From an uncultured Bacillota bacterium (lineage in GTDB: Bacteria > Bacillota > Clostridia > Christensenellales > UBA1242): a DNA stretch of 64,000 nt. The notes under the pieces are model-generated. The model was not told the DNA's origin. It did not search any database and worked only from the letters and a program-made list of their open reading frames with translations. This document shows, piece after piece, positions 32,435 to 63,625 of this stretch (positions are counted from its first letter, which is position 1; every line of letters starts with the position of its first letter). A program made the position numbers and the translations under genes. The stretch is from contig CASDUK010000001.1 in the NCBI GenBank assembly GCA_949283975.1, forward strand, positions 97,187 through 161,186, in the 5' to 3' direction.

Positions 32435-34384
32435 ATGAGTAAATCCTATGATTCAAAAGACATTGTTGTTTTAGAGGGGCTTGACGCTGTTAGGCTTAGG
32501 CCGGGAATGTATATTGGAACAACAGGCGTTAAAGGGCTTCATCACATTCTTTGGGAAATTGTTGATAACGCAATAGACGAAGTTTCAAACGGCTTTGGGA
32601 ACAGAATTTCAATAACGCTCCATAAGGACGGAAGCGCAAGCGTTGAGGACAACGGAAGGGGAATTCCAGTTGACCTCCACCCAACGCTGAAAAAATCTGG
32701 CGTTGAAGTTGTTTTTACCCAGCTTCACGCTGGCGGGAAATTTAACAGCGACAACTATGGCTATTCCGGCGGACTTCATGGCGTTGGCGCATCGGTTACA
32801 AACGCGCTAAGTGAGTGGACAAAAGTTTGGGTTTGCAAGAACAAAAAGCGCTATTACATGGAGTTTGAAAGCAAAGTTGGAGAGAATGGAAAAATTAAAA
32901 GCGGCGTTCCCGTTGCCCCTCTTATGGAAATTGGCGACACAAATAAAACGGGAACAAAAGTTACTTTTCTTCCGGACAAACGCGTTTTTGAAACAACAGT
33001 TTTTAACGCAGAAACAATTTCAAAAAGGCTTAAGGAACTTGCATTTTTAAACAAGGGAATTTACATTGATTTTGTTGACGAAAGAACTGGGCAAAAACAA
33101 CTTTTTGCCTATGAGGGCGGCCTTAAAGATTTTGCGCTTTACTTGAATGAGGGAAAAACCGCGCTTTATAAAGAACCAATTTTCATATCCGGCGAAAGCA
33201 AACTTGTTAAGCTTGAACTTTCAATTCAACACACAGACACCTACACTGAAAACATGTTTTCATATGTCAACAACATTCCAACCTCTGAGGGTGGAACGCA
33301 CGAAACGGGTTTTAAATCTGCGCTGACACGCCTTATGAACGAACTTGCAAGGCAGCAGGGCTGGCTTAAAGAAAAGGAGCAAAACTTAATTGGAGAAGAT
33401 TTTAGAGAGGGAATAACCGCAATTCTTTCAATTAAGATGAGAAACATTCAATTTGAGGGGCAAACCAAAACAAAACTTGGAAACCCCGAAATTAAGCCAG
33501 AAGTTGAAAACATTGTTTATAGCGAACTTTTTAAATATTTTGAACAGAAAAACAAGATGGAAATTGCCGAAATTGTCTTTAACAAGGCAAAGGGGGCGGC
33601 AAAAGTTAGAGAAGCTCAGCGAAAGGCAAAGGATCTTGCAAGGCAAAAAAACAGTGTTGATAAATATAATCTTGTTGGAAAACTTTCTGCTTGCACAAGC
33701 AGAAAGCCAGAGATAAGCGAGCTTTTCATAGTTGAGGGAGATTCTGCTGGCGGAAGCGCGAAACAGGGAAGGGATAGAACCTTTCAAGCAATTTTGCCGC
33801 TTAAAGGAAAACCACTTAACGCAGAGAAAAAGCGGCTTGACCAAGTTTTGGCAAACGAGGAAATTAGAACAATTATTTCCGCCCTTGAAACAGGCGTTGG
33901 CGAAGATTTTAATTTGGAGAATTTAAGATATAAAAAGGTTATAATCCTTTCCGATGCCGACCAAGACGGCGCACACATTAGGGCAATTTTGTTAACTTTC
34001 TTTTTCAGATATATGCGCGGGCTAATTTATGACGGCGATGTTTACATTGGCCTTCCGCCGCTTTATAAGGTTTATAAAAAAGATGTAACAGAATATGTCT
34101 ATTCAGACAACGAACTTCAAGATGCGATTGCGCGAGTTGGAAAAGGATATCAAATTCAAAGGTATAAAGGACTTGGAGAGATGAATCCAGAACAACTTTG
34201 GGAAACAACAATGGACCCAAAACACAGAAATTTAATTCGCGTTACAATTGATGACGCTGCCGAGGCCGAGAAAATGGTTACAACCTTAATGGGCGACAAC
34301 ATTGAAGCAAGAAAGGCATATATTTCTGAATATGCAAATTTTAACAGAGAAGATGATTTCCTTGAAAAATCAAAAGTTAACTAA
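32435..34384 (+). CDS. parE: type IIA topoisomerase subunit B (ParE/GyrB family; probably ParE)
   Basis: 649 aa with GHKL ATPase motifs (LEGLDAVRLRPGMYIG, HHILWEIVDNAIDE, GGLHGVGASV), Toprim EGDSAGG and PLKGK, DADQDGAHI. The cognate A subunit in this window lacks a GyrA box. Confidence 0.7.
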   Translation: MSKSYDSKDIVVLEGLDAVRLRPGMYIGTTGVKGLHHILWEIVDNAIDEVSNGFGNRISITLHKDGSASVEDNGRGIPVDLHPTLKKSGVEVVFTQLHAGGKFNSDNYGYSGGLHGVGASVTNALSEWTKVWVCKNKKRYYMEFESKVGENGKIKSGVPVAPLMEIGDTNKTGTKVTFLPDKRVFETTVFNAETISKRLKELAFLNKGIYIDFVDERTGQKQLFAYEGGLKDFALYLNEGKTALYKEPIFISGESKLVKLELSIQHTDTYTENMFSYVNNIPTSEGGTHETGFKSALTRLMNELARQQGWLKEKEQNLIGEDFREGITAILSIKMRNIQFEGQTKTKLGNPEIKPEVENIVYSELFKYFEQKNKMEIAEIVFNKAKGAAKVREAQRKAKDLARQKNSVDKYNLVGKLSACTSRKPEISELFIVEGDSAGGSAKQGRDRTFQAILPLKGKPLNAEKKRLDQVLANEEIRTIISALETGVGEDFNLENLRYKKVIILSDADQDGAHIRAILLTFFFRYMRGLIYDGDVYIGLPPLYKVYKKDVTEYVYSDNELQDAIARVGKGYQIQRYKGLGEMNPEQLWETTMDPKHRNLIRVTIDDAAEAEKMVTTLMGDNIEARKAYISEYANFNREDDFLEKSKVN

Positions 34385-34427: not shown

Positions 34428-35144
34428 TTATTGATAAACTTTAACTTCCTTAACCTCAAGATTTGAAATTGTCATCCATGAAACCCAGCCATATCTAATT
34501 CCACTAAATGTGTCAAGAGTTATTGGGTCGTCGTTCTCGTCGCTAAGTTTTGCGTCTTTAACAGTGAAAACGGTTGTTCCAGCTTCGTTTACAAGGCTCA
34601 TATCAAGTTTAATAATATTGTTGTCATCATAGAAGGTGTATTTTGCTGTATACCAACCATCTGGAATTAAAACCGAGCCTTCGTTTGAAGTTGCATCAGC
34701 GTTGATTTCGTCGTTTGAACCATTGTAAACATAGCCAACTTTAACGCCTTCATCATACTTTCTGAAATACATGTTTCTTTCGTCAACAAATTCCTTGTTT
34801 TCATCGTTGATTGAAACCGTCCAGGTAAACCCTTGGCCTGTTGTCATAGATGCGCCGTCAATTTTGAAGGTTATTGACGCGGTGTAACCATTTTCAACCC
34901 ATTCAAAATTTTTGTCCTCTTCGCCAAAATATGTCATTGGCCCGTTGTTTGCGTCCGTTGATTTGTTTAATGTTATTGTTCCGTTGTTGTTATCCGTTAC
35001 GCTTCCATAATTTCTAAAAAGATTGTTGTTTCCGTTTGTGAAATCACTTACGAAAAGCGTTTTCCCTCCGCCACCACAAGCCGCAAAGACGATTGCACAG
35101 CAAAGAAGCATAACTCCGGTTAAAATTTTTGAAATATGTTTCAT
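34428..35144 (-). CDS. lipoprotein of unknown function
   Basis: 238 aa with signal peptide and lipobox (LLCCAIVFAAC-GGGGK). The mature part is predicted beta-rich. SD AGGAGG. Confidence 0.7.
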   Translation of the reverse strand: MKHISKILTGVMLLCCAIVFAACGGGGKTLFVSDFTNGNNNLFRNYGSVTDNNNGTITLNKSTDANNGPMTYFGEEDKNFEWVENGYTASITFKIDGASMTTGQGFTWTVSINDENKEFVDERNMYFRKYDEGVKVGYVYNGSNDEINADATSNEGSVLIPDGWYTAKYTFYDDNNIIKLDMSLVNEAGTTVFTVKDAKLSDENDDPITLDTFSGIRYGWVSWMTISNLEVKEVKVYQ

Positions 35145-35207: not shown

Positions 35208-35237
35208 TTGACAAAGCGGTTTTGGGTGTGGTATATT
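35208..35237 (+). promoter_or_regulatory. sigma-A-type promoter for tRNA-Val
   Basis: TTGACA (35208-35213), 18-nt spacer, TGg-TATATT (35229-35237), 11 nt before the tRNA. Confidence 0.6.
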
Positions 35238-35248
35238 ATACCTCGCTT

Positions 35249-35325
35249 GGGAGTTTAGCTCAGTTGGTTAGAGCACCTGCCTTACAAGCAGGGGGTCATA
35301 GGTTCGAGTCCTATAACTCCCACCA
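35249..35325 (+). tRNA. tRNA-Val, anticodon TAC (CCA encoded)
   Basis: GGGAGTT-TA-GCTC-AGTTGGTTA-GAGC-A-CCTGC-CTTACAA-GCAGG-GGGTC-ATAGG-TTCGAGT-CCTAT-AACTCCC-ACCA. Fully canonical cloverleaf. Confidence 0.95.
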
Positions 35326-35333
35326 AGAGAAAA

Positions 35334-36060
35334 AACTGCGCTTTGGCCTTGTTTCGCTTGTCAGCGAAACGAACGGCTTTGGCGCTTGTTTTTTCTCTTG
35401 TTCGCGGCCAGACGAAAAATTACAAGTTTCTTGTAATTTTTGCCGCGACTAAAAAGGAGCTTTAATAGCTTTTCTGTGAATAACAAATATATCTTGTTAA
35501 AAGAGCAAAGATAAATCTCAAGCGGCCGTTAACTGCGCTTTTGCCTAGTTTCGCAAGTGTGCGAAACGAACGGCTTTGGCGCTTGTTTTTTTCTCTAATA
35601 CGCGGCCAGACGAAAAATTACAAATGCTTGTAATTTTTGCCGCGACTATTAATGTTTTTAAATAGATTTTCTGTAAATATTATTTTGTTTTTAAAAAAAG
35701 AGAGAGAAAATCCCAAACGGCCGTTAACTGCGCTTTTGCCTGGTTTCGCAAGTGTGCGAAACGAACGGCTTTGGCGCTTGTTTTTTCTCTTATACGCGGC
35801 CAAACGAAAAATTACAAATGCTTGTAATTTTTGCCGCGACTTGTAAGGAAAACAATAGCTTTTCTGTGAACCAGAAAGGAAACTTTTAAAAGAGTAAAGA
35901 ACAATCTTAAACGGCCGTTAACTGCGCTTTGGCCTAGTTTCGCTTGTCAGCGAAACGTGCGGCTTTGGCGCTTGTTTTTTCTCTTATACGCGGCCAGACG
36001 AAAAATTACAATGCTTGTAATTTTTGCCGCGACTTGTAAGGAAATTAAATAGCTTCTTTG
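35334..36060 (+). repeat. tandem array of four ~195-bp structured repeat units (unit starts 35334, 35531, 35726, 35920)
   Basis: Each unit has three parts. (a) A terminator-like stem-loop GCGCTTTGGCC..GTTTCGCN-loop-NGCGAAAC..GGCTTTGGCGC plus a T-run. (b) A 44-47-nt hairpin CGCGGC-CAGACG(bulge)-AAAAATTACAA-loop-TTGTAATTTTT-GCCGCG. (c) A ~65-nt partly conserved segment ending ACGGCCGTT. No ORF is conserved across units. Confidence 0.85.
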
Positions 36061-36153
36061 TTAATCGGCAATATTTTCATTAAAAATTCAAACCGCACAA
36101 AAAAAAGGCGGGTTTTAAGCGCACTAGACATAAAAGAAGCGGCAGAGAGCAGT

Positions 36154-36645
36154 TTAAAGCGAACGGAGCAGTTTTTTTAATATAAGCCGGTGGTTTTCTT
36201 CATCTGCCAAAATTGCAGAGAGCAGAAGTTTTATTTGAACATTTTCAATTTTGGAAATTGCAAGCTTGTAATCTATAATAGATTTTTCCTTTGCTTCCAG
36301 ATTTGCGTGGAGAATTAGTTTTGTGTCTTTGATATAGTCAATTTGCCGGCCGCCTATGAATTTTCCTTGGGAAGTTGCGTAGATTGGGTTTCCATAGGTC
36401 ATTTCAATTGCATTTGCAAGAAGTTGTTGATGGCGAAGGTCTGTTAAGGACATTTCGTTTAAAACGGAGGCAATTTTTTCGTTGTAGGAGCGAAGAACAT
36501 TTGCATGATATTGAAGCTGGAGAAACAGAATAACTTCTCCTTCCGATCCGGCAAAAAGGTTTTGCAAAAGCCCGCTGTAATATGAATTTTTACAGTGGGT
36601 TTTAATTGTTGGATAATCTCTTAGTTCAACTTCAATTTTTGCCAA
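36154..36645 (-). CDS. ferritin-like / rubrerythrin-superfamily four-helix-bundle protein (CotJC/Mn-catalase-like, tentative)
   Basis: 163 aa and all-helical. Has a C-terminal DEENH (ExxH) motif and an N-terminal GSEGE..QYH segment. The metal-ligand set looks incomplete. Confidence 0.35.
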   Translation of the reverse strand: MAKIEVELRDYPTIKTHCKNSYYSGLLQNLFAGSEGEVILFLQLQYHANVLRSYNEKIASVLNEMSLTDLRHQQLLANAIEMTYGNPIYATSQGKFIGGRQIDYIKDTKLILHANLEAKEKSIIDYKLAISKIENVQIKLLLSAILADEENHRLILKKLLRSL

Positions 36646-38441: not shown

Positions 38442-41417
38442 ATGGACGAATTTGAAGATTTTGAAAATTTTGAAGATAGCGAGCCAATTGAGGGGCAAAT
38501 TTGCTATGATGAACTTGAACCAATTTTAGAGGTTGAAAGTGAAGAAGCGCCAGCAGCGCTTGAGGGTCAGCTTGGCTTTGATGAATTAAAACCTCAAAAT
38601 TTGGAAACAAATTCAAGCAAGATGGAATTGCAAAAACCAAAGAACGAAACCCATAATCACGGGAATTCGGCTTTTTTAAAGCCCGAAACTAGCGCGCAAT
38701 CCAAAGAAAATTTCGAGCAAAAAGGCCAACTTTTCAAACCGGAAGAAGAAACAAAAAAAGTTTCCAGCGAAAAAGAAGATTTTGCGCATGTTGAAAGCCC
38801 CAGGGAAAGCGAGCAAGCCGAATTTTCCGGCGGGAAGAAAACTTTTAACCATGTTGAACAAGCCAATGAAAAGCAAGATTTGGGCGAAGAACAAGCAAAT
38901 TTAAGTTCTATGGATAAGAGAGAAGGTGAAAGCATTTTGGACGAAATTGAAAGCGACAGAGCCAAGCGCGCTCCAAAACCGAAAAGAGAAAAGCAAATTA
39001 AATTAGATCTTTCCGAAGCGGACGGAAGCGGAATTATTTTAACATCGCTGGAAGATGTTCTTCACAATTCAATGATTCCATACACCGAACACGTTGTTTT
39101 AGACAGGGCTCTTCCGCGCGTTGAGGACGGGCTTAAACCAGTTCAAAGAAGAATTCTTTACACAATGCTTGAACTTGGCCTTCAGCCAGACAAGCCGTTT
39201 AGAAAGAGCGCAAGAATTGTTGGGGATTGCATGGGCAAATATCACCCCCATGGCGACAGTTCTGTTTATGACGCAATGGTTAGAATGGCTCAAGACTATT
39301 CACTTAGAGAGCCTCTTGTTTTGGGGCATGGAAACTTTGGGTCTATAGACGGAGACAGCGCCGCGGCCATGCGTTACACAGAGGCAAAGTTAACGCCGCT
39401 TGCAATGGAGCTTTTAAGAGATTTAGATAAGAACACGGTTAGATGGATGCTAAACTTTGACGACACGCTTAAAGAGCCGGCAATGCTTCCCGGGCGCTTT
39501 CCAAACCTTTTGGTTAACGGGGCATATGGAATTGCCGTTGGCGTTGCAACCAACATTCCGCCACACAATCTTTGCGAAGTTATTGAAGGAATTGTTGCAT
39601 ACATTGACCACCCAAAAATTTCGCTTGAAGAGATGATGAAAATAATTAAAGGGCCAGATTTTCCAACCGGGGGAATTATCCTTGCCGGCGAGGAGCTTAA
39701 GGAGGCTTACAGAACGGGCAAAGGCAAAATTATTTTAAGAGCAAAAACCCACATTGAAGAAAAGGGCGATAAAAAGTCCATTGTTATAACAGAAGTTCCA
39801 TACCAAACAAACAAGGCGGCGCTTCTTCAAAAAATTGCAGAACTTAGAGAGGCAAACAAAAACATTTTGTCTGGGATAATTGAAATTAGAGACGAGTCGG
39901 ACAGAAACGGGCTTAGGGCAGTTATTCGCCTTAAAAAAGAAGCCAACGAAAAGTTTATTTTAGACTATCTTTTCAAACAAACCGGCCTTCAAGTTACCTT
40001 TGGAATTAACATGGTTGCAATTGCAGACGGAAAGCCAAAACAAATGGGGCTTTTGGATATAATTTCATACTATGTTGAATATCAGCGAGAGGTTATTTTT
40101 AGAAGAACAAAATTCGAGCTTGACCAAGCAAAGGAAAGAGCCCACATTTTAGAAGGGCTTTTAATTGCAATTAAAAATATTGACGAAGTTATTAAAATTA
40201 TTAAATCATCTGCTTCTGTTGCAGAGGCAAAAGTTAAGCTTAGAAATAAATTTGCGCTAAGTGAAAAGCAAGCGCAAGCAATTTTAGACATGCGCCTTGC
40301 AAGGCTTGTCAATCTTGAAGTTAACAAGCTAAAGGAGGAACTTGCGGCGCTAAAAATTAGAATTGCAGAACTAACAAAAATTTATGAAAGCAAGCGCCTT
40401 CAACTTGGTGTTGTTAAAACAGAGCTTGGCGAAATTAAAAGGCGTTTTAAAAGCGGAAGAAAAAGCGAGATTGACAAAAAAACGCAGTCAATTGAAACAA
40501 AAACAAAGGTTAAATTAGAGCCAATCATTATGGAAACAGAGGTTGTTTTGGCCGTTTGTGCCTCTGGCGCGATTAAAGCAATTCCGCTTAAAAATTACAA
40601 CCTTGCTGCCAAGGAACTTGGCCAGTCTTCAACGTTGGATCATGTCCACACCCAATTATTAAAGATTAAAAACACAGAAAAAGTTTTAATTTTTACAAAC
40701 AAAGGTAATTGTTTAAAAATTTCTGCTGGAAACATTCCAGAAGCAAAGTGGAAGGAGAAGGGAGCGCTTCTTAAAAACATAGATAAAAGGGTTGGAAGTG
40801 ATGAAAAAGCAATTGCAATTTTGGCTCTTCCTTCTAACTTAGAACAAAAGAAAATTGTTTTCTACACCAGCGACGGAATGATTAAACTTTCAAATCTTGA
40901 AGAATATGACATTGCAAAGGCGGTTTTCCAAGCATTAAAATTAAAGGAAGGCGAAGAACTTATTGGCGTTGAAGAGTTTAAAGAGGGCGGTTCTGTTGTT
41001 TTTGTTACAAAAAACGCAATGGTTTTAAACTTTGAAAAAGTTGACATTCCAGTTCAAGGTCGTGTTTCTGGCGGAGTTAGGGGAATTAATTTAGACGGAG
41101 AAGACAGGGCAATTTTTGCTTGCCAGGTTACAAAATCTGGAAATTTAACTCTTCTTACAAACAAGGGAATTGGAAAGAGAATTCCAATTGCAGAGTTTGG
41201 CCTTTCGGCAAGATATCGAAAGGGGCTTAGGGCAATTTCTCTTCCAAAGGGAGGAAGCGTTGTTTACAGCGAGTTTAACCACGAGCCTCCAAGCATTGTT
41301 TGCGCTTGCGGCGAAGGATTAAAACTTGCCGGTCAAATTCCGCTTCTTGGAAGGCTTAGCGAGGGAAAGCCTGTTGTTTCTGGGCTTGCTGGCGGCGCAT
41401 TTAGATTTGAAATTTAA
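38442..41417 (+). CDS. parC: type IIA topoisomerase subunit A, ParC-like (no GyrA box), with ~200-aa acidic N-terminal extension
   Basis: 991 aa. The catalytic core starts around aa 205 ([38 protein letters not shown]; [11 protein letters not shown] active-site Tyr). The C-terminal beta-pinwheel lacks QRRGGKG. The true start is uncertain. Confidence 0.75.
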
Positions 41418-42495: not shown

Positions 42496-42523
42496 TTGCA
42501 AAAAAATATGCGCCACCCATAAT
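42496..42523 (+). promoter_or_regulatory. candidate sigma-A promoter overlapped by two phased TTCGACA (reverse Spo0A-box-like) motifs
   Basis: TTGCAA (42496-42501), 16-nt spacer, CATAAT (42518-42523). TTCGACA at 42523-42529 and 42533-42539. Confidence 0.35.
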
Positions 42524-42544
42524 TCGACATATTTCGACAAAATA

Positions 42545-42610
42545 ATTTTTTCTCTTATACGCGGCCAGACGAAAAATTACAAATTCTTGTAATTTTTGCC
42601 GCGACTTATA
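42545..42610 (+). repeat. solo copy of the repeat-unit T-run plus bulged hairpin (same family as the 35334-36060 array)
   Basis: TTTTTTCTCTTATA-CGCGGC-CAGACG-AAAAATTACAA-attc-TTGTAATTTTT-GCCGCG-ACTTATAAGGA. The stems are identical to the array copies and only the loop differs. Confidence 0.85.
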
Positions 42611-42638
42611 AGGAGATTAAATATTTCGAAGAGCCAAG

Positions 42639-42690
42639 CCCAAAATAAAAGCAGGGATAAACCCTGCCAAAGTGGAGCGGGTGAAGGGAA
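42639..42690 (-). repeat. duplicated tRNA-Gly 3' fragment plus terminator (50/52 identical to 42812-42863)
   Basis: CCCAAAATAAAAGCAGGGATAAACCCTGCcAaAGTGGAGCGGGTGAAGGGA. It contains only the last ~18 nt of the tRNA (minus-strand TCCCTTCACCCGCTCCA). Confidence 0.8.
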
Positions 42691-42814
42691 AAGAGCCAAG
42701 CGCGCCCAGTGGGCGAAACAGCGCAGGCGATTTTCATTTGAGCGAGGCAGCGAAAAGGCGACCAGTTTCGAACAGAGGGGAGATGAGGACTCGTAGGGTT
42801 CGATTCCCGAACCC

Positions 42815-42840
42815 AAAATAAAAGCAGGGATAAACCCTGC
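42815..42840 (-). terminator. rho-independent terminator of tRNA-Gly
   Basis: Minus strand: GCAGGG-tttat-CCCTGC followed by TTTTATTTT. Confidence 0.7.
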
Positions 42841-42845
42841 TATAG

Positions 42846-42919
42846 TGGAGCGGGTGAAGGGAATCGGACCCTCGCAGCCAGCTTGGAAGGCTGGAGCTCT
42901 ACCACTGAGCTACACCCGC
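42846..42919 (-). tRNA. tRNA-Gly, anticodon TCC (CCA encoded; atypical T-loop)
   Basis: Minus strand: GCGGGTG-TA-GCTC-AGTGGTA-GAGC-T-CCAGC-CTTCCAA-GCTGG-CTGC-GAGGG-TCCGATT-CCCTT-CACCCGC-TCCA. Confidence 0.88.
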
Positions 42920-43165: not shown

Positions 43166-43182
43166 TTCGACAAATTTCGACA
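43166..43182 (+). promoter_or_regulatory. two phased TTCGACA motifs (reverse complement of the TGTCGAA Spo0A-box consensus)
   Basis: Perfect 10-bp tandem CAAATTTCGA-CAAATTTCGA-CA. TTCGACA at 43166-43172 and 43176-43182. Confidence 0.3.
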
Positions 43183-43325: not shown

Positions 43326-43354
43326 TTGAAAAAAGCAGATTTATGTGTTAAATT
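43326..43354 (+). promoter_or_regulatory. sigma-A-type promoter abutting the GDPD-like gene start
   Basis: TTGAAA (43326-43331), 17-nt spacer, TGt-TAAATT (43346-43354). ATG 43362 is 7 nt after the -10, with no SD. Confidence 0.45.
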
Positions 43355-43361
43355 AATAACA

Positions 43362-44378
43362 ATGCAAGAAAGCAAGAGGGAATTTAAAAAGAGGTTAAAC
43401 AGGCGCGGCATGCTCAAAAGCCAGGCCGAAATTTCTGATTCGAAAAAACTTAAGGTTTTTTATTTAACGGCGGCAGCAGTTATTGTAGCAACAACTTCAA
43501 TTAAGCTTGCGCCAAGTGATACATACACAAACCCCGGAGTTGATTACAACACAAATTTCGTTGTTGCCCATGCGGGCGGCGCGCTAGAAGAGAACGGAAG
43601 GGAACTTGGTTATTTGAACTGCTTAGAGGGATTTTATCATTATTATGCAGAGGGAACGCGGCTTTTTGAGTTTGACCTTGTTTTTTCAAGCGATGGCAGG
43701 CTTGTTGGAACTCACACATATGAATATTTAGACGGCCACAGCATGAGAAACAGAATTGCCTATCAGGATTATAAAAACACAAAAATTGCCGGAAAATTTG
43801 AGGGGATTACGGAGGAAAGTTTGCTTGCGCTTTGCAAAATTTTTCCAGAATGTAAATTTATTATTGACACAAAAGAAAAGAATCCAACGGCGGTTTATTA
43901 CAGAATTATTGACCTTGCCAAGCAGCAAAATTTGGATATATCCAAGACAATTCTTCCGTTTGTTAGTTCAAGAGACATGCTTTTAGATCTTGAAAAAAGA
44001 TATGATTTTAAGGAGATTATGTTCACCAACTATAAAAATTATTATTCCACAAGGCAACTTTTAAACATTATTAAAGAATTTGATAAAATTAGATATGTTC
44101 ATATTTTTCCAATAGACTTTTTTAGGGTTGACATTGAAAAACTCAATCAACAGGGCGTTAGAGTTTTTGCCCACATGGACAAGGAGAATTTTTTAAGAAC
44201 GGCGCTTGACTATGGCTGCACTGGGATTTTTTCAGACAACATTTCTGAAAAAGATTTTAAAGAAAACCATTACAGTTTTTTGGCAAAGAAGCTTGAAATT
44301 GTTCAAGAACAAGTTGTTCATGAAAGAAAAGTTGAAATGTTTTATAAAAGGAAAGAAAGCCCAGAATTAGAATTTTAG
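43362..44378 (+). CDS. membrane-anchored glycerophosphodiester phosphodiesterase (GDPD)-like protein
   Basis: I prefer ATG 43362 (MQESKREF...) because the ORF-track TTG 43326 coincides with the -35 box. N-terminal TM anchor. GDPD-like VVAHAGG...EFDLVFSSDGRLVGTH and IIDTKE blocks. Confidence 0.55.
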   Translation: MQESKREFKKRLNRRGMLKSQAEISDSKKLKVFYLTAAAVIVATTSIKLAPSDTYTNPGVDYNTNFVVAHAGGALEENGRELGYLNCLEGFYHYYAEGTRLFEFDLVFSSDGRLVGTHTYEYLDGHSMRNRIAYQDYKNTKIAGKFEGITEESLLALCKIFPECKFIIDTKEKNPTAVYYRIIDLAKQQNLDISKTILPFVSSRDMLLDLEKRYDFKEIMFTNYKNYYSTRQLLNIIKEFDKIRYVHIFPIDFFRVDIEKLNQQGVRVFAHMDKENFLRTALDYGCTGIFSDNISEKDFKENHYSFLAKKLEIVQEQVVHERKVEMFYKRKESPELEF

Positions 44379-55449: not shown

Positions 55450-57702
55450 ATGAACTTTTTGGGGGCGGATGTCTTTCAAAGCATCGTTACATTCTTTGAG
55501 GGCGTTAGAGATTCTCTTTCGCTTGAAGGCCTGCTTTTCTTATTTATTGGCCTAGAAATATTTGCAATAATTGCCTTTATTATTGCAACTCACTTTATTT
55601 ATGAGTTAAGGCTTGTTAGGGCAATTGACAGATTAAATGTTTTTCTTTATGATGCTCAATACATAAACGAAAACAATTTAATTGAACTTAATAATTTGAT
55701 GAAAGCTGTTCCAAAAACGCTTAGATATCACTGGCAGGAATACATGTTAAACAGGGATAAAAACCCAAGTTTTTACATGTCTGTTGAAAATTGTATAGAC
55801 AGGCCGCTTAAAACAAGCGCCTTCCAAGCAATTATTAAAATTATTAAAGCTTTTGGGTTTGTTTTTGCTGGGCTTGCGTTTTTATTTACCTGTGGTTATG
55901 CAGCCGGCGTTGGCGAATTTGGGGCAGATTTCTTTATCACCGTTTTTACAATTCCAGTTTTTATTTTAATTATTAATTACTTGTTTGTTATAGCTTTAAA
56001 TATTAGAATGGCGGCAAACACAACAGAGCTTTATCAAACTTTCCACATCTTTAACAGATTTATTGACAAGGCAGTTTCAACAATGCCAGATTATGTTGAC
56101 TTTGAAGTTCTCTTTACAGAAAAAGAAATTAAACGCGGAATTCCTGTTTTGAACGAATACATTGAAAAGAGGCAAATTCAAGAACAAGAAGAACTTAAGC
56201 GCGCAAGAGAGAATGCAATTCAACACGAGCAATATAACTTTAAACCGGCGGGCGAAAAGGGTGAGCTTGTTTTGGAAAGGGCAATGAAGGAGACCGAAAT
56301 TTTCATTGGCATTAGAACAAGGCTTAACACAGAAATTCAACATTTGGAAAGTGAAATTGAAAGTTTAAAGAGAAACTTTGAAAATACAACTAAAGACTAC
56401 CAGAAAAAACTTCAAGCAAGCAAGGAAAACTCCTTAAGGCTTCGTGAGCAACAGGAGGCAACAACTAACAAGCTTGAATACAACTACATTAGAAAACAGC
56501 AATCTGACGAAATTAAAAAGCAAGAGCAAATTGAAAAAGATCAGGAAGATGCACAACTTAGGTTTAACCAGGAAATCAACAATCTTTCCGAGCAAATTGC
56601 TCAGCGCAAACAAGAAATTCAAGAGGCAAAAGTTAACCTTGAAAAAGCAATGCTTGCAGAATACACAACCTTTGCCAACAAGATCTTTAAAGAGGTTAAG
56701 GAAGACGTTAACACAAGAGTTAGGGAGGAGCGCGACGGGTTAATTAAATCTCGTGAGGAGGTTGAGCGCGAACTTGAAGAGGCTGTTAATAGAATTGATA
56801 TTTTAGAGAAACAAAACAAAATTTTGGTTAATAAAACAGACCAAAGAGAGGCATACATTAAAGCCGAAATTGGAAAGGAAAAACAAGAACTTGAAAAGCA
56901 GCTTAAGGAAAAAGAAGCAATTATCATTGAGAGAGACAAACAAATTAGGTTGTTAACAGAGGACTATTCTTTTGACGAAAACAAAAAGCTTGAACCTCTT
57001 AGTCAAACAACAGCCGAAGATGAATTTGGCGGATATTATGACGACCTTGGAAATTACAGAAATAAGGACGGAACATACTATGACAAAGAAGGTAATTTCC
57101 ACGATGAAGCAGGAAATGTTTATGACAAAGAAGGAAATTTAATCACAGCGGCTCAAACAAAAGAAAAACCAAAAGAAGAACCAAAACCAGAAGAAGAATT
57201 TTCTATGTTTGATGCGCCTTCAAACACAGCGGCCAACGAACCAGCAGCCGAAGGCGAGGGAGAAGTTGAAAACGAAGAAGTTGCCGAGTCCAAAGAAGTT
57301 TCCGAACCCTCAGCAGAACCAGAAGTTAAAGAAGAGAAAAAGCGCGGAAGGCCAAGAAAAGAGGTTTCAGAGCCGGTTGAAACAGAGCCAAAGAAACGCG
57401 GAAGGCCAAGAAAAGAGGTTTCAGAGCCAGTTGCAACAGAGCCGAAGAAGCGCGGAAGGCCAAGAAAAGAGGTTTCAGAGCCGGTTGCAACAGAGCCAAA
57501 GAAGCGCGGAAGGCCAAGAAAAGAGGTTTCAGAGCCGGTTGCAACAGAGCCGAAGAAGCGCGGAAGGCCAAGAAAAGTTGATATTGACGAAAATCTAAAG
57601 CAAATTGAGGCAAGGCTTAAGGAGCAGAACGAACTTTTAAAACAGCAACAAAAAGCTTTGGAGGCAACTGTTAAAAACGCAACAAAGCCAACAGAAGAAT
57701 AA
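55450..57702 (+). CDS. membrane-anchored coiled-coil protein with five C-terminal AT-hook repeats
   Basis: 750 aa with SD AAGGAGG. Three predicted TM helices (about aa 25-50, 125-150 and 158-185). About 300 aa of heptad-like E/K/Q-rich sequence. A Y-D-x-x-G-N repeat patch, then 5 x KKRGRPRK(EVSEPVATEP). Confidence 0.7.
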   Translation: MNFLGADVFQSIVTFFEGVRDSLSLEGLLFLFIGLEIFAIIAFIIATHFIYELRLVRAIDRLNVFLYDAQYINENNLIELNNLMKAVPKTLRYHWQEYMLNRDKNPSFYMSVENCIDRPLKTSAFQAIIKIIKAFGFVFAGLAFLFTCGYAAGVGEFGADFFITVFTIPVFILIINYLFVIALNIRMAANTTELYQTFHIFNRFIDKAVSTMPDYVDFEVLFTEKEIKRGIPVLNEYIEKRQIQEQEELKRARENAIQHEQYNFKPAGEKGELVLERAMKETEIFIGIRTRLNTEIQHLESEIESLKRNFENTTKDYQKKLQASKENSLRLREQQEATTNKLEYNYIRKQQSDEIKKQEQIEKDQEDAQLRFNQEINNLSEQIAQRKQEIQEAKVNLEKAMLAEYTTFANKIFKEVKEDVNTRVREERDGLIKSREEVERELEEAVNRIDILEKQNKILVNKTDQREAYIKAEIGKEKQELEKQLKEKEAIIIERDKQIRLLTEDYSFDENKKLEPLSQTTAEDEFGGYYDDLGNYRNKDGTYYDKEGNFHDEAGNVYDKEGNLITAAQTKEKPKEEPKPEEEFSMFDAPSNTAANEPAAEGEGEVENEEVAESKEVSEPSAEPEVKEEKKRGRPRKEVSEPVETEPKKRGRPRKEVSEPVATEPKKRGRPRKEVSEPVATEPKKRGRPRKEVSEPVATEPKKRGRPRKVDIDENLKQIEARLKEQNELLKQQQKALEATVKNATKPTEE
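57337..57576 (+). repeat. 4.4 tandem copies of a 54-bp in-frame repeat encoding the AT-hooks
   Basis: Units start at 57337, 57391, 57445, 57499 and 57553 (partial). Units 3 and 4 differ at one base. Confidence 0.9.
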
Positions 57703-58999: not shown

Positions 59000-60427
59000 A
59001 TGGAGAAATATAAAACCATGCCACACAGCATTGAAGCAGAACAGTCTGTTCTTGGTTCAATGATGATAGACAATGAAGCACCGCTTGTAATTTTAAGCGC
59101 GCTTAATTCTGACGATTTTTATTCAGTTGCCAACAGAGAAATTTTTGAAAACATGTTGGAGTTAAATCGCCAAAACAGGCCAATTGACTTTGTTACGCTA
59201 ACAGACCTTTTGGAAAAGGTTGGAAAACTTGAAGCAGTTGGCGGAATTGATTATTTAACAAGTTTGACAAACAGCGTTCCATCTGCGGCAAATTATAAAT
59301 ATTACATGGACATTGTAAAGCGCGATTCACTTTTTAGGAAACTTATCATGGCTGGGCAGAAAATTATTGAAAATGCCTATCAAGCGGGGGACGACAAAGC
59401 TGCCCTTAGTTTTGCAGAGAAAGAGATTTTTGACATCGCAGAAAGGCAAGATTTTTCATCTTTGGAACACATTGAAGGCGCTTTAAAGGAAGTTATTGAC
59501 AAATTAAATAAAATTGCAAAAGACCCTTCTTCGCTTCGCGGGCTTTCAACAGGGTTTTCTGATTTAGATTCAATTACAAATGGGCTTCAAAATTCCGATT
59601 TAATTCTTCTTGCAGCAAGGCCGGGCGTTGGAAAAACTTCGCTTGCCATGAACATTGTTAACAACGCGGCAACGCTTGGAAAGAAAAGTTGTGCAATTTT
59701 CTCCTTGGAAATGCCAAGGACACAAATTGCCCAAAGGTCCATGTGTTCAATTGGAAATGTTTCAATGGAAAAAGCGCTAAAAGGAAAGCTTTCGGTTGAC
59801 GAATGGACGGCCTTGGTTAAGGCAAGCAGAAAACTTTCGGAGGCTTCAATTTATATTGACGACTCTTCAATAAACGACCCAAATGACATTCTTTCAAAAT
59901 GCAGAAGAATTAAAAGAGAACATGGTTTAGATCTTGTTATGATTGACTATCTTCAGCTTATGAGGGCGGACAAAAATTCAACTTTCGACAACAAAGTTTT
60001 GGAAGTTGGAGAAATTACAAGATCTTTAAAAATTGCCGCAAGAGAGCTTGATGTTCCAATAATTTTGCTTTCTCAGCTTTCAAGGGCGGTTGAGCAGAGA
60101 AAGGGCGACCACAGGCCTGTTCTTTCAGACCTTAGAGACAGCGGCTCAATTGAGCAGGACGCAGATATTGTTATGTTCATCTATAAGGCAGACATGTATA
60201 ACGATGTTATAACGGAAGAGAGTGATGTTGCAGAACTTATAATTGCGAAACACAGGAACGGCCCGCTTGGAACGGTTAAACTTAGATGGAACGGCGAAAC
60301 AACAAGTTTTTTGGACTACAATAAAAATTTTGTAAAGAAAAAAGCTTTGGCTCAAACAGATGAGGAACTTGTTGCAAAAGAGGTTGACGAAGCAGAATTT
60401 AACGAAATTAAAGAACTTTTTGAATAG
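59000..60427 (+). CDS. dnaB: replicative DNA helicase (DnaB family)
   Basis: 475 aa, N-terminal PHSIEAEQSVLGSMM, Walker A ARPGVGKTSLAMN, Walker B LVMIDYLQLM, SQLSRAVEQR, arginine finger region. Confidence 0.95.
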   Translation: MEKYKTMPHSIEAEQSVLGSMMIDNEAPLVILSALNSDDFYSVANREIFENMLELNRQNRPIDFVTLTDLLEKVGKLEAVGGIDYLTSLTNSVPSAANYKYYMDIVKRDSLFRKLIMAGQKIIENAYQAGDDKAALSFAEKEIFDIAERQDFSSLEHIEGALKEVIDKLNKIAKDPSSLRGLSTGFSDLDSITNGLQNSDLILLAARPGVGKTSLAMNIVNNAATLGKKSCAIFSLEMPRTQIAQRSMCSIGNVSMEKALKGKLSVDEWTALVKASRKLSEASIYIDDSSINDPNDILSKCRRIKREHGLDLVMIDYLQLMRADKNSTFDNKVLEVGEITRSLKIAARELDVPIILLSQLSRAVEQRKGDHRPVLSDLRDSGSIEQDADIVMFIYKADMYNDVITEESDVAELIIAKHRNGPLGTVKLRWNGETTSFLDYNKNFVKKKALAQTDEELVAKEVDEAEFNEIKELFE

Positions 60428-60444
60428 AAAGTTGTTAAAACGTA

Positions 60445-60470
60445 GGAAGGCCAAATGGCCTTCTTTTATT
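60445..60470 (+). terminator. rho-independent terminator of dnaB
   Basis: GAAGGCC-aaat-GGCCTTC followed by TTTTATTT. Confidence 0.7.
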
Positions 60471-60522
60471 TATTAATAAAGAGATTTAATAGTTTTTTTA
60501 AACGAGAATTTTTATACAAAAA

Positions 60523-60539
60523 TGACGAAGATTGTCGAT
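60523..60539 (+). promoter_or_regulatory. two phased Spo0A-box-like motifs upstream of the sigma-like gene promoter
   Basis: TGACGAA (60523-60529) and TGTCGAT (60533-60539), 10-bp spacing, about 70-85 bp upstream of the -35 at 60608. Confidence 0.3.
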
Positions 60540-60607
60540 TATTGTAAAAATGTATAAATTTGTTTTGAATTTTTTACAAAAATAAGTAAAATTTATGTCA
60601 GTTGTTG

Positions 60608-60637
60608 TTGACTTTGAAATTTTTGCAACTTTATAAT
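60608..60637 (+). promoter_or_regulatory. sigma-A-type promoter of the sigma-region-4-like gene
   Basis: TTGACT (60608-60613), 18-nt spacer, TATAAT (60632-60637). Confidence 0.5.
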
Positions 60638-60688
60638 TTTTTTGTTTATTAAATTTTAATAGGCAGAATTTATTGGCAAGGGGAAGAT

Positions 60689-61261
60689 ATGGAACTTAAA
60701 ATTTGGGCAAGAACTATTTTAACGGTTCAAAGGCATATTGCAAAGGTTGTTAGGGCACTTGATGAAATAATTTACAAGCGCGCGCTTTCGTCAATCTTTG
60801 TTACAACTAAAAATCTAACTGAACAAAGCAGCGAGGCTGTTAGCAATTTTATTATTAACGTATCCGAAACAAAGGTTAATTTGATTAACCTAAACACTAT
60901 TTGCATTGACGGATTAAAGGCAATTGACAAACTTTGCTCCAAAATACTAATTTTGAAACACATAGACGGAAGAACAAGCTTGGAAATTGCAAATTTGCTT
61001 GATATAAGCGAAAGAACGTATTATAGAAGGCTAAATAAAGCCTATGAATTATTTGCCGATTATTTGCAAGAAAATGGCTTTTGTGAGCAATATTTTATGG
61101 ATAAATTTGCAAACGAAGGTTGGATTATGGAAGTTTATTATTCTTGCAAAAACTTTTTTAGCGGAAAGGAAAACGGCGAAATTTTTAATGAAATAAACTT
61201 TAATTTTTTAAAGAGCGTTATAAAAACAATATCCAAAACCGCTCATTCGTCATATTCATAA
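60689..61261 (+). CDS. sigma-70 region-4-like HTH protein (phage late-gene-activator-like)
   Basis: 190 aa. LILKHIDGRTSLEIANLLDISERTYYRRLNKAYELF is a region-4-type HTH. There is no region 2. Located one gene before a terminase gene. Confidence 0.4.
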   Translation: MELKIWARTILTVQRHIAKVVRALDEIIYKRALSSIFVTTKNLTEQSSEAVSNFIINVSETKVNLINLNTICIDGLKAIDKLCSKILILKHIDGRTSLEIANLLDISERTYYRRLNKAYELFADYLQENGFCEQYFMDKFANEGWIMEVYYSCKNFFSGKENGEIFNEINFNFLKSVIKTISKTAHSSYS

Positions 61262-62103
61262 TAGTCTTGATGGCGCGAACGCTTTCGCTTTTCGCGCTTA
61301 GTTGGTTTAAGTTCGGCGTCTTGAAGAGCTTTTGCGCTAATTTTTGTTGGCCGAAAAAGGAGATAGATTATTGCAATGCAGGGCAAACAAACGGCAACAA
61401 TTATTATAATTTGAGTTGTTGTTGGAAGGGCGCTCATTGCGTCTTGGCCAGAAGGGGGTGTTGTTGTTTCAACAACAAAATCTGGCTGCTCAATATATTC
61501 AACGGCTTCTGTGTTTGTTGGAATTTCGGTAAGCAAGTCGCAAAAATAGGCATATAGATAGCCAAAAACCTCTTGGCTGCCCTTTGTATATTTGCAATAA
61601 TACCATGTTGTTCCGCTGTAAGTAACTGCCTCCTCGCCGTCAATTGTTCCATAATATATTAGGTTTGTTTCCATAAAATTAATTGTTTCAAGCGTGTTTA
61701 GCCCATCTGTGTAAACGGGCGTTGAGCGAAGGTCAACTCCGCCCGGAATAAACATTCTAAAGCTTGCAATTGCAAATGGGGTTTGAGGGACGCCGCTAAT
61801 TGCCTTAACCTCACTTTTTTTTACATAGCCATAGACATCTTGATATCTTGCGGTGTAATAATTTTCATTTTCACAATAGGAAATTTCAACAAAATAACTT
61901 TGGGGAATTACAAAATATACATTAGAAAAGTCTTCGCTTCCCGTTGTTGAGCGATAGAGCTTTACGCTTGAAGATTGAACTTTTGCATAGCAAGAATCTT
62001 GAGTTTGCGCGCTAACGCTTTTAATTTGAAATGGGAAAAAGCCCAGGCAAAATATGGCAGCGAAAACAATTAGAATTGATTTTTTTGCAAGATTTTTTAG
62101 CAT
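61243..62103 (-). CDS. secreted/membrane-anchored protein with two SH3b-like domains
   Basis: I prefer ATG 62103 (MLKNLAKKSILIVFAAIFCLGFF...SVSAQ signal). Two Y/G-rich beta domains (YYTARYQDVYGYVKKSEV; WYYCKYTKGSQEVFGYLYAYF). C-terminal TM plus basic tail. A TATAAT (62115-62110) lies 6 nt before the ATG. Confidence 0.55.
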   Translation of the reverse strand: MLKNLAKKSILIVFAAIFCLGFFPFQIKSVSAQTQDSCYAKVQSSSVKLYRSTTGSEDFSNVYFVIPQSYFVEISYCENENYYTARYQDVYGYVKKSEVKAISGVPQTPFAIASFRMFIPGGVDLRSTPVYTDGLNTLETINFMETNLIYYGTIDGEEAVTYSGTTWYYCKYTKGSQEVFGYLYAYFCDLLTEIPTNTEAVEYIEQPDFVVETTTPPSGQDAMSALPTTTQIIIIVAVCLPCIAIIYLLFRPTKISAKALQDAELKPTKREKRKRSRHQDYYEYDE

Positions 62104-62179
62104 GAATTCATTATAACCATTTTTAAATAACACTTGCTATGAGAAAAATGTCTAAATTAGAGAGATTACAGGAGAAAAT

Positions 62180-63625
62180 ATGAACAAAAAACAAATTCTT
62201 TCAAAACTTGGCGAAATTGACGACGAAATTTTGTTTAGAAATAAATATTCTAAATTAGAAAGATATAACAAAGGGAAAAAAGTTCACAAAAAACAAATGG
62301 AATTTCACAAATGTTTAAAGCGCAACCGCTGGGTTTTTGGCGGAAACAGAAGCGGAAAAACGGAGTGTGGCGCAGTTGAAACAGTTTGGCTTGCAAGAGG
62401 AATTCACCCTTTTAGAGTTAACCGCGAGGAGGTTGTTATTTGGGTTGTTTCTCTTTCTAAACAAGTTCAAAGAGATGTTGCGCAAGGAAAAGTTTTTAGT
62501 TATTTGAAGCCAGGGTGGATTGAGGACATTGTTATGGAAAGTGGCTCAAAAGATTTTCCAAGCGGGGGAGTTGTTGACTATGTTTTAGTTAAAAATGTTT
62601 TTGGCAAAATTAGCAAAATTGGCTTTAAAAGTTGCGATCAAGGAAGAGAAAAGTTTCAAGGGGCGTCCATTGATTATATTTGGTTTGACGAAGAGCCGCC
62701 ATATGACATCTATCGCGAATGTAGAATGAGAATTCTAGACAGAAAGGGCGAAATTTATGGAACAATGACGCCGCTTAAAGGGCTTAGCTGGGTTTACAAC
62801 GAAATTTACTTAAACGAAAAAGAAGACCAAGAGGTTTGGAACATTACAATGAATTGGGACGACAACCCATATTTGGATAGAGACGAAATTAAAAGTTTAA
62901 AATCCTCAATGAGCGAGGAGGAGCTTGAGGCGCGCTGCTATGGAAAGTTTTCATCTTCAATGGGGCTTGTTTATCCAGAATTCGACCCGCAAGTTCATGT
63001 TGTTGAACCCTTTGATGTTCCGCGAGAGTGGTTTGACACAATTTCAATTGACCCCGGGCTTAATAACCCGCTTTCTGCCCATTTTTATGCCGTTGATTAT
63101 GACGGAAACGTTTATGTTATTGCAGAACACTTTGAGGCGGGAAAAGATGTTCAATATCATGCAGATGCAATTAAAAAAATTTGTGAGCGGCTTGGCTGGG
63201 AAAAGGGGTTTGGCGGAAGATATGATGCCTTAATTGACAGCGCCGCAACCCAAAAAACGCTTGCTTCTTCTAAAAGTGTTTGCGAACTTTTTTATGACTT
63301 TGGAATAAACGCAAACCCTAAGGTTAACAAGGATTTGTTTAGCGGAATTAACCGAGTTAAAAGTTATTTGAAAGATGCCCAGGGAAGAGTTAAGCTTTTT
63401 ATTTTTAAAAGTTGCACTAATTTAATTAGAGAACTTAAAAGCTATTTTTGGGGGGACAACGACAAGCCGATTAAAGCAGACGACCATGCGCTTGACGAGC
63501 TTAGATATTACATAATGTCGCGCCCAGAAGCGCCAAAAGTTCAAAAAGTTAAAACAGAAATTGAAAAGGACAAGGAAAAGTTAATTAGAAAACTTGAATT
63601 AAAGCGCCGGCAACCATGGAATTAA
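62180..63625 (+). CDS. phage terminase large subunit (TerL)
   Basis: 481 aa with SD AGGAG. Walker A GGNRSGKT, Walker B IDYIWFDEEP. C-terminal RNase-H-like nuclease with SIDPG and DDHALDELRYY. Confidence 0.8.
   Translation: MNKKQILSKLGEIDDEILFRNKYSKLERYNKGKKVHKKQMEFHKCLKRNRWVFGGNRSGKTECGAVETVWLARGIHPFRVNREEVVIWVVSLSKQVQRDVAQGKVFSYLKPGWIEDIVMESGSKDFPSGGVVDYVLVKNVFGKISKIGFKSCDQGREKFQGASIDYIWFDEEPPYDIYRECRMRILDRKGEIYGTMTPLKGLSWVYNEIYLNEKEDQEVWNITMNWDDNPYLDRDEIKSLKSSMSEEELEARCYGKFSSSMGLVYPEFDPQVHVVEPFDVPREWFDTISIDPGLNNPLSAHFYAVDYDGNVYVIAEHFEAGKDVQYHADAIKKICERLGWEKGFGGRYDALIDSAATQKTLASSKSVCELFYDFGINANPKVNKDLFSGINRVKSYLKDAQGRVKLFIFKSCTNLIRELKSYFWGDNDKPIKADDHALDELRYYIMSRPEAPKVQKVKTEIEKDKEKLIRKLELKRRQPWN

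Follow-up and report, generated by a model that had tools for sequence, protein, structure and literature searches.

How is one to understand a run of four structured units of about 195 bp that begins one base past a tRNA-Val gene? The run lies in a 64,000-nt stretch of DNA (positions 97,187 to 161,186 of contig CASDUK010000001.1; here called the window) from an uncultured Bacillota bacterium. An initial annotation of this DNA had left several explanations standing, among them tandem small RNA (sRNA) genes and an element resembling REP sequences or MITEs (miniature transposable elements with inverted repeats). Our analysis suggests that the array probably arose when a composite small interspersed repeat not described before was amplified in tandem. 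This repeat is similar in kind to BOX, BIME and MITE elements and is confined to the lineage of the window organism and of the metagenome-assembled genome (MAG) BRZ_CE__bin52. Understood in this way, the units are a common sort of bacterial 'junk' repeat, young and hairpin-rich, and not a conserved RNA gene.

The window is a piece of bacterial chromosome from a low-G+C Firmicute (~36% G+C), with the r-protein/secY/rpoA cluster, gyrB (32435-34384), gyrA (38442-41417), DUF4364, addAB and dnaB among its genes. Tandem Repeats Finder (TRF) places the array at 35334-36055 (3.7 copies with a period of 194, 83% matches, score 936), the one long-period array in the window, and confirms the four units that had been described: they measure 197, 195 and 194 bp head to tail and are followed by a shortened fourth unit that ends near 36072. 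The tRNA-Val(TAC) gene, which has an encoded CCA, is called by ARAGORN and Rfam at 35249-35325 of the + strand. The left arm GAGAAAAAAC of unit 1 begins at 35327, and the start of the first module (AACTGCGC) recurs at 35334, 35531, 35726 and 35920. On its other side the array is bordered by a convergent - strand operon of rubrerythrin-like, SDR and RluA-like genes. Each unit consists of two hairpin modules, a and b, and an AT-rich spacer of ~80 nt that ends in (A/G)CGGCCGTT. All four units differ from each other in sequence, and no open reading frame (ORF) is common to them, as had been observed before.

Both modules are present as first described. Module a is a compound palindrome of ~70 nt with the form of a terminator, in which an inner 8-bp hairpin, GTTTCGC(T/A)-N4-(A/T)GCGAAAC, is enclosed by the outer stems GCC/GGC and GCGC and followed by the tail TTGTTTTTT. 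In unit 1, GAGAAAAAAC (35327-35336) pairs with GTTTTTTCTC (35388-35397) to form 10-nt inverted arms. Module b is a hairpin of ~45 nt with a 6-bp clamp (CGCGGC/GCCGCG), a 6-nt bulge (CAGACG, or CAAACG in unit 3) and an AT stem of 10-11 bp. The features of the array, and those of a solitary copy elsewhere in the window, are as follows.

35327..35397, + strand: module a of unit 1, a compound hairpin with the arms GAGAAAAAAC/GTTTTTTCTC and the inner hairpin at 35351-35370.
35403..35447, + strand: module b of unit 1, a hairpin with GC clamp, CAGACG bulge and AT stem.
35448..35530, + strand: spacer of unit 1, AT-rich and variable, with the palindromic junction (A/G)GCGGCCGTT at its end.
35531..35595, + strand: module a of unit 2, inner hairpin at 35548-35567, A:T variant of the closing pair.
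35601..35644, + strand: module b of unit 2, a hairpin.
35726..35789, + strand: module a of unit 3, inner hairpin at 35743-35762.
35795..35838, + strand: module b of unit 3, bulge CAAACG.
35920..35983, + strand: module a of unit 4, inner hairpin at 35937-35956, T:A variant.
35989..36031, + strand: module b of unit 4; the unit breaks off ~40 nt further, near 36072.
36075..36110, - strand: hairpin and T-run that close the convergent operon, AAACCCGCC-T8-GTGCGGTTT, read from the sequence; right edge of the array.
42546..42623, + strand: solitary fifth copy (95 bits), made up of a T-run, module b at 42560-42603 and the right flank ACTTATAAGGAGATTAAATA, without module a.
42523..42539, + strand: direct repeat TTCGACA-N3-TTCGACA, just upstream of the solitary copy and also present ahead of dispersed copies in the sequences L001/L008 and L007/L012.

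The first line of evidence for an interspersed repeat is its distribution. Exact-pattern scans of species genomes and metagenomes, with module b as query, found this module in only one MAG among 185,579 species (one genome each), the uncultured Clostridia BRZ_CE__bin52 (CALWHN01), where it occurs on at least six contigs and mostly at contig ends. Three further assemblies of the same lineage that carry module b came from the metagenome scan, and flanking sequence on these contigs shares 89-93% identity with the window. The copies fall into five contexts: tRNA-Val, tRNA-Asn, tRNA-Gly(TCC) and tRNA-Gly(CCC), tRNA-Lys, and a subtilase gene. The element directly follows tRNA-Val, and lies ~75 nt past tRNA-Asn and that gene's own terminator, with five units in one sequence (L011) and at least two in another (L005). 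At tRNA-Gly(TCC) and tRNA-Gly(CCC) it is convergent on the tRNA, as is the solitary copy of the window, whereas the distance is ~340 nt at tRNA-Lys and 88 nt past the large subtilase gene. In close relatives the element thus occupies at least five unlinked sites, mostly <400 nt from tRNA genes, and the link to a tRNA holds in four of five loci. All copies are intergenic. The family is therefore multi-copy, dispersed, intergenic, biased to tRNA genes and confined to a single species-level lineage of uncultured Clostridia. When 19 copies were used to build a covariance model, it retrieved no additional or divergent copies in the 194 kb of sequence examined, and three sequences picked up by the search patterns (L003, L009 and L010) were discarded as chance matches. 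A phage or plasmid origin was also rejected: IMG/VR viral contigs gave no exact module matches, and plasmids and phages gave no blastn matches, one 32-nt match at E = 8e-4 being noise.

The second line of evidence is the modular build of the copies. Six independent left junctions begin with (A)GAGAAAAAACTGCGC, and the modules occur in different combinations: b alone (window 42546-42623), a and b alone, and a, b and spacer in arrays. Two subtypes can be told apart, an array type with GGCTTTGGCGC and a dispersed type with GGCATTGATGC and another b loop. The arrays at tRNA-Asn and tRNA-Val use the same two spacer types, and the L011 array has a higher-order period of two units, which together suggest that whole units were moved or converted between loci and that arrays grow by unequal exchange. 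Unit number differs between loci and strains. We also considered that the spacers might be diverged copies of the 3' flank of the array. The z scores of 4-6 that favoured this idea came wholly from the proximal 30 nt, which belong to the unit, and the distal half of the spacers showed no significant similarity to that flank (p = 0.04-0.4).

The third line of evidence is that the array is recent. Syntenic regions of relatives were fetched via homologues of the rubrerythrin-like neighbour. In L014, where the neighbour protein is 79% identical, an identical tRNA-Val stands in the same orientation between gyrB and the same gene, and is then followed by a plain terminator only, AAAATCTTG-aaag-CAAGATTTTTTTT. 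In L017 and L018 (78-79% identical), gyrB and this gene likewise enclose a tRNA-Val, which stands in inverted orientation. Neither nhmmer nor the covariance model from 19 copies detected an element match at these three loci, and neither module was found in L021 (83%). L022 (96%), a sequence that ends inside module b, has both modules. As far as sequence comparison goes, this absence from relatives at ~80% protein identity shows the array to be a recent gain, acquired within the species-level lineage after its split from these relatives. Such a recent gain makes it unlikely that the array is a conserved regulatory RNA.

Other gains and duplications were observed around the same gene. In L021, the place of the array (~590-891) is taken by two copies of an 87-nt segment ~129 nt apart, each of which ends in a tRNA-Val-like 3' end (GTCCATATAACTCCCACCA) behind a short T-arm-like hairpin; neither ARAGORN nor Rfam calls a tRNA there. 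In this clade the stretch 3' of tRNA-Val looks like a hot spot where tandem insertions of various kinds arise. Between gyrB and tRNA-Val the window carries an ORF of 238 aa (34428-35144, - strand) that matches no Pfam family and whose N-terminus resembles that of a lipoprotein. Its absence at this place in L014, L017 and L018 makes it a further lineage-specific gain at this spot.

In bacteria, BOX, RUP, SPRITE and BIME, ERIC, Correia and MITE elements are <200 bp long, intergenic, tightly folded and simple or composite, occur only in a species and its nearest relatives, and can affect transcripts (PMC3049150). Stem-loop repeat families were found in many genomes, clostridia included, in a systematic survey (PMC2267715). 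BOX of Streptococcus pneumoniae has the structure boxA-boxB(n)-boxC, in which the internal box varies in its number of tandem copies (Croucher et al. 2011, PMC3049150), and some REP/BIME elements serve as attenuators or terminators (PMC3049150). The element described here shows the traits by which composite interspersed repeats are recognised, namely unlinked copies, separable modules, a non-coding, intergenic and base-paired nature, and a narrow range (PMC3049150). It resembles BOX, RUP and SPRITE in being composite, intergenic, self-folding, non-coding and limited to one species and its closest relatives (PMC3049150), in that it may affect transcripts running into it, and in being judged parasitic from its distribution. 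Like BOX, it has a part that is tandemly repeated in numbers varying by locus and strain. However, there is no sequence similarity to BOX, and the whole unit of ~195 bp (a, b and spacer) is repeated here rather than a 45-bp internal box. Further differences from BOX, RUP and SPRITE are the module in the form of an intrinsic terminator, the marked bias to tRNA flanks, and the fact that no insertion sequence (IS) with matching ends is known for this element.

The REP/MITE-like option of the initial annotation proved closest to the evidence, in that the element is dispersed, lineage-restricted, absent from the relatives' locus and equipped with 10-nt inverted repeats in module a, but REP in the strict sense it is not. 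With the REP/BIME elements of enterobacteria, which are mobilised by RAYT/TnpA-REP, it has in common imperfect palindromes with unpaired bases, mosaic clusters and an intergenic position at gene 3' ends. REPs, in contrast, are ~35 nt long, start with 5' GTAG and form inverted pairs, while the modules here are 45-70 nt long, have no GTAG and are all in direct orientation, and the sequence examined holds no RAYT gene. MITEs such as Correia of Neisseria, RUP and Nezha are likewise short, non-coding, multi-copy and highly base-paired. With regard to their terminal inverted repeats, module a has the arms GAGAAAAAAC/GTTTTTTCTC in first and solitary copies, but the composite of a and b has no matching outer ends. 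Unlike MITEs, which are described as AT-rich, the modules have a higher G+C content than the genome; moreover, no target-site duplication was detected and no parent IS was seen in the window or the fetched flanks.

The stems of both modules are strongly formed and hardly vary. Compared with shuffled sequences, the fold of the whole region gives z = -13.5 (+ strand) and -9.3 (- strand), and single modules reach z of -2 to -7. The hairpin of module a in unit 1 has a predicted energy of -39.3 kcal/mol on + and -34.8 on -. The + strand was the more stable in five of five comparisons, by 1-4.5 kcal/mol, so that the earlier view of an outer stem that works only on the + strand was overstated, as the - strand forms it too. 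RNAalifold on 19 non-identical copies gave 33 pairs, with 624 of 624 cells paired; 31 of the 33 pairs are invariant, one changes from G:C to G:U in five copies, and one alternates between A:U and U:A (10 versus 9 copies). Variable columns make up 3/66 of paired and 27/50 of unpaired positions (Fisher p = 1e-9), in a test whose sequences had also served to predict the structure. The asymmetric, bulged hairpin b is invariant across the 19 copies.

These data bear on two earlier claims. The compensatory change of the closing pair, T:A in units 1 and 4 and A:T in units 2 and 3, is real, but it involves four neighbouring positions of loop and closing pair at once, which makes it one haplotype switch rather than repeated independent covariation. 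Selection on structure was upheld in a weak sense: the stems are invariant and the loops variable, whereas covariation rests on one of 33 pairs. We therefore rejected covariation as proof of an RNA structure, the comparison being underpowered with 31 invariant pairs and a single double change. Overall the stems are constrained, and the level of this constraint could be RNA, single-stranded DNA or palindrome maintenance.

With this in mind, one may propose how the array arose. An element of modules a and b would have inserted directly behind tRNA-Val and displaced an ancestral simple terminator, and a segment of ~195 bp (a, b and ~80 nt) would then have been multiplied by unequal crossing-over or replication slippage, with whole units also swapped with the tRNA-Asn locus. 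Module a, in its terminator form of compound stem and U-run, occupies the place of the plain terminator of L014, and in unit 1 it is likely, given its predicted fold, to be the intrinsic bidirectional terminator of tRNA-Val. According to this proposal it would stop tRNA-Val transcription and block antisense read-in from the convergent operon, and given this stop at unit 1, units 2-4 would be largely untranscribed passengers. The stems may be kept since copies that cannot fold would neither terminate nor propagate, or through self-correction of palindromes. Candidates for the agent of dispersal are a trans-acting transposase or recombinase and ectopic recombination.

Several results weigh against this interpretation. 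A simple terminator scan does not call module a, its stem being compound. No transposase, integrase, RAYT or IS200 gene was found among the 40 ORFs of the window or the 9 ORFs beside other copies. No direct repeat that could represent a target-site duplication flanks the six left and four right junctions, and no clean pair of empty and filled sites was found, so that mobility is deduced from distribution only. In addition, the consistently higher stability of the + strand and the G:C to G:U change at one stem position in five copies hint at selection on the + strand transcript or single strand, and the avoidance of stem changes could equally reflect a host function, be it as an RNA or as a protein-binding site.

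In annotation, the array should be entered as a repeat region in which unit 1 is the likely terminator of tRNA-Val and the units are not RNA genes. The family also accounts for the breaks at tRNA loci in this lineage's MAGs. It adds an example from Clostridia to the composite self-folding interspersed repeats of pneumococci, enterobacteria and Neisseria, with the particularity that one module has the form of a ready-made bidirectional terminator and that the family clusters at tRNA genes near short duplications of tRNA 3' ends. A dedicated recombinase, if found, would make the element much more interesting.

Such a recombinase is central to the first alternative, which we consider unlikely overall. 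A recombinase or HUH/tyrosine transposase, acting in trans from a gene elsewhere in the genome, would recognise hairpins a and/or b as recombination substrates, probably once they are folded as single-stranded DNA with CAGACG as an extrahelical bulge. Units would be added one after another to the arrays by site-specific insertion at the core AA(AA)ACTGCGC beside tRNA genes, as at attC sites, REP/RAYT elements or IS200/IS605 ends. The invariance of the bulged hairpin b speaks for a substrate of this kind. Every unit opens with the core AACTGCGC, and the length of the junction varies (GTTAA, GTTAAAA or GTTAAGAA, followed by ACTGCGC). The array of L011 ends at 4134-4162 in a clean stub with the form of a bidirectional terminator, AAAAACTGCGC-ttggg-GCGCAGTTTTTTT, that is, in an extra core within a simple hairpin, which is expected if units insert after the core. 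This stub may be either the ancestral target hairpin or the product of a deletion in module a between the direct repeats GCTT(T/G)GG, and the deletion explains it equally well. Duplicated tRNA 3' ends are a hallmark of integrase activity. Copies of the element cluster at tRNA genes beside duplicated 3' parts of tRNA-Gly and tRNA-Asn, and L021 has the duplicated tRNA-Val 3' ends mentioned above. However, tRNA-Val itself has no duplicate of its 3' end in the window, where such an att-site signature was looked for, and a recombinase gene was found neither in the window nor in any fetched flank.

Integron attC arrays and CALINs offer a structural parallel, since there too imperfect hairpins that keep their structure and carry extrahelical bases form a direct array, and module a is bounded by AAC...GTT. 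In contrast to them, the array has no cassette ORFs, its units are nearly identical in sequence, and the 64 kb hold no IntI or integrase. The attC boxes (R'' RYYYAAC and R' GTTRRRY) and the GTAG head of REPs are absent as read from the sequence, the boundaries here being CGTTAAC or AAAAAAC, and GTTTTTT. In Firmicutes, the phylum of the host, complete integrons are rare or not known. By sequence inspection only, attC, K-turn, group II intron domain V and dif/Xer sites were each judged not to fit.

The tRNA duplications near the copies deserve a closer description. On the - strand, the last 17 nt of tRNA-Gly(TCC) and its terminator are duplicated ~170 nt downstream of the gene (42641-42690 versus 42813-42863), and the two are separated by a G+C-rich insert of ~120 nt (42691-42812) that is not significantly structured (z = -1.5, -2.4). 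This duplication looks like the att-type footprint of a lost integrative element. The same arrangement at tRNA-Gly is seen in L013, with an extra unit of a and b. In L011 (~5150-5480) a segment made up of the tRNA-Asn 3' half, the terminator and ~47 nt is tandemly duplicated with a 64-nt insert, just before the array of five units, and the segment past the terminator holds a 17-nt inverted copy of the region from anticodon to T-stem (TTACGACCTATCGGTTAA). L005, from another strain, lacks this tRNA-Asn duplication. One may speculate that a new class of non-autonomous element is at work here, with hairpins a and b as its cis-acting ends, and that a recombinase acting on folded single-stranded DNA inserts it site-specifically beside tRNA genes or into terminator hairpins; we regard this as a long shot. 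The arrays and the duplicated 3' ends of tRNA-Gly, tRNA-Asn and the tRNA-Val of L021 would then be footprints of that activity.

A second alternative, that of tandem sRNA genes or a processed 3' trailer of tRNA-Val, appears improbable to us. Here each unit, or a transcript reading through from the tRNA-Val promoter, would give stable structured RNAs, made of hairpin b and the CU-rich linker UUUUUUCUCUU, which act in trans (for example by Shine-Dalgarno pairing) or as a sponge or decoy. Of the tRNA-linked processing or decoy element that the initial annotation also put forward, the positional link to tRNA genes is real. The better folding of the + strand and the G:U variant agree with this, as do the U-run that closes module a of each unit and the CU-rich single-stranded linker between a and b, which is complementary to AAGGAG after b. 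The element is co-directional with the upstream gene in four of five loci. There is a resemblance to tandem sRNA families such as LhrC1-4 of Listeria and the streptococcal csRNAs in the ~200-bp units that each end in a terminator form and in the CU-rich single-stranded stretch. However, those families have a recognisable promoter per unit and are conserved across a species group, while near relatives lack the present array and its units have no internal promoter. The sole promoter-like site that reads into the array is the near-consensus promoter of tRNA-Val (35208-35237, + strand; TTGACA-18-TATATT with extended -10). No promoter-like site was detected on either strand of 35238-36250, and none of sigma-70 type inside the array. 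Ahead of two dispersed copies there are promoter-like matches, together with a TCGACA direct repeat, but these matches are weak (9/12) when real tRNA promoters here score 10-12/12.

Moreover, a very stable predicted terminator (-39 kcal/mol) precedes units 2-4, and an element seen in one species-level lineage and absent from relatives at ~80% protein identity is not a conserved regulator. The earlier suggestion that each unit is an sRNA gene with its own terminator is thus poorly supported. In Rfam, tRNA alone passes the gathering thresholds and nothing else is convincing at E up to 10; the best other scores in the array are <20 bits (E >= 0.05) when thresholds are 35-428 bits. The initial annotation, too, had recognised no named RNA family in the units. 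An extended helix around module b (CTCTTATA with TTGTAAGGAG), which would bury the Shine-Dalgarno-like AAGGAG, is predicted by minimum free energy. Among the copies, however, the variants on its 5' side combine freely with those on its 3' side, so that this flanking helix does not covary and was not counted as conserved structure. A small ORF behind the AAGGAG was rejected too, as no start codon stands at a usable distance and nothing is conserved.

It is very unlikely, in our view, that the array is a stack of terminators or insulators selected by the host. Several strong terminators in such a stack would avert the collision of transcription from the highly expressed tRNA-Val with that of the convergent rubrerythrin-like operon near the origin-proximal gyrB-gyrA region. 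The array does stand exactly between convergent transcription units, its stems are conserved, module a substitutes for the plain terminator of L014, and unit 1 is bidirectional in form. In relatives, however, one simple hairpin suffices. A stack would leave module b and the spacer without a role, unit number varies by locus and strain as neutral expansion predicts, and units are also present where no convergent gene needs insulation. Finally, an assembly artefact or chance similarity is next to inconceivable: although such repeats break short-read assemblies and many copies lie at contig ends, the array sits inside the 64-kb window with four mutually different units, an independent array of five units lies on a 181-kb contig of 109x coverage, independent assemblies hold the same arrays with their own unit variants, and shuffles give an expectation of 0 matches.

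Some further observations concern the surroundings. The repeat TTCGACA-N3-TTCGACA, with 10-bp spacing, was found at four loci versus 0.9 expected at <=3 mismatches (window 42523-42539 and 43166-43182, L001 136-152, L012 ~10225). Three of these lie just upstream of element copies, and one lies ~150 nt upstream of a gene for a GDPD-family phosphodiesterase (43326-44378). The repeat could be a response-regulator box, conceivably of the Pho type. At 59000-63625 there are phage-type genes, for a DnaB-like helicase (59000-60427), a small sigma-70-r4/helix-turn-helix protein (60689-61261) and a terminase large subunit (62180-63625), and this region is probably the edge of a prophage. The ORF at 55450-57702 encodes a protein of 750 aa with an AT-hook match and contains, at 57340-57577, a 54-bp tandem repeat of 4.4 copies with 95% identity that is in frame (18 codons). 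GyrA (38442-41417) is 991 aa long with its topoisomerase domain starting from residue 222, which implies an N-terminal extension of ~220 aa; the models of its relatives are 916-961 aa long.

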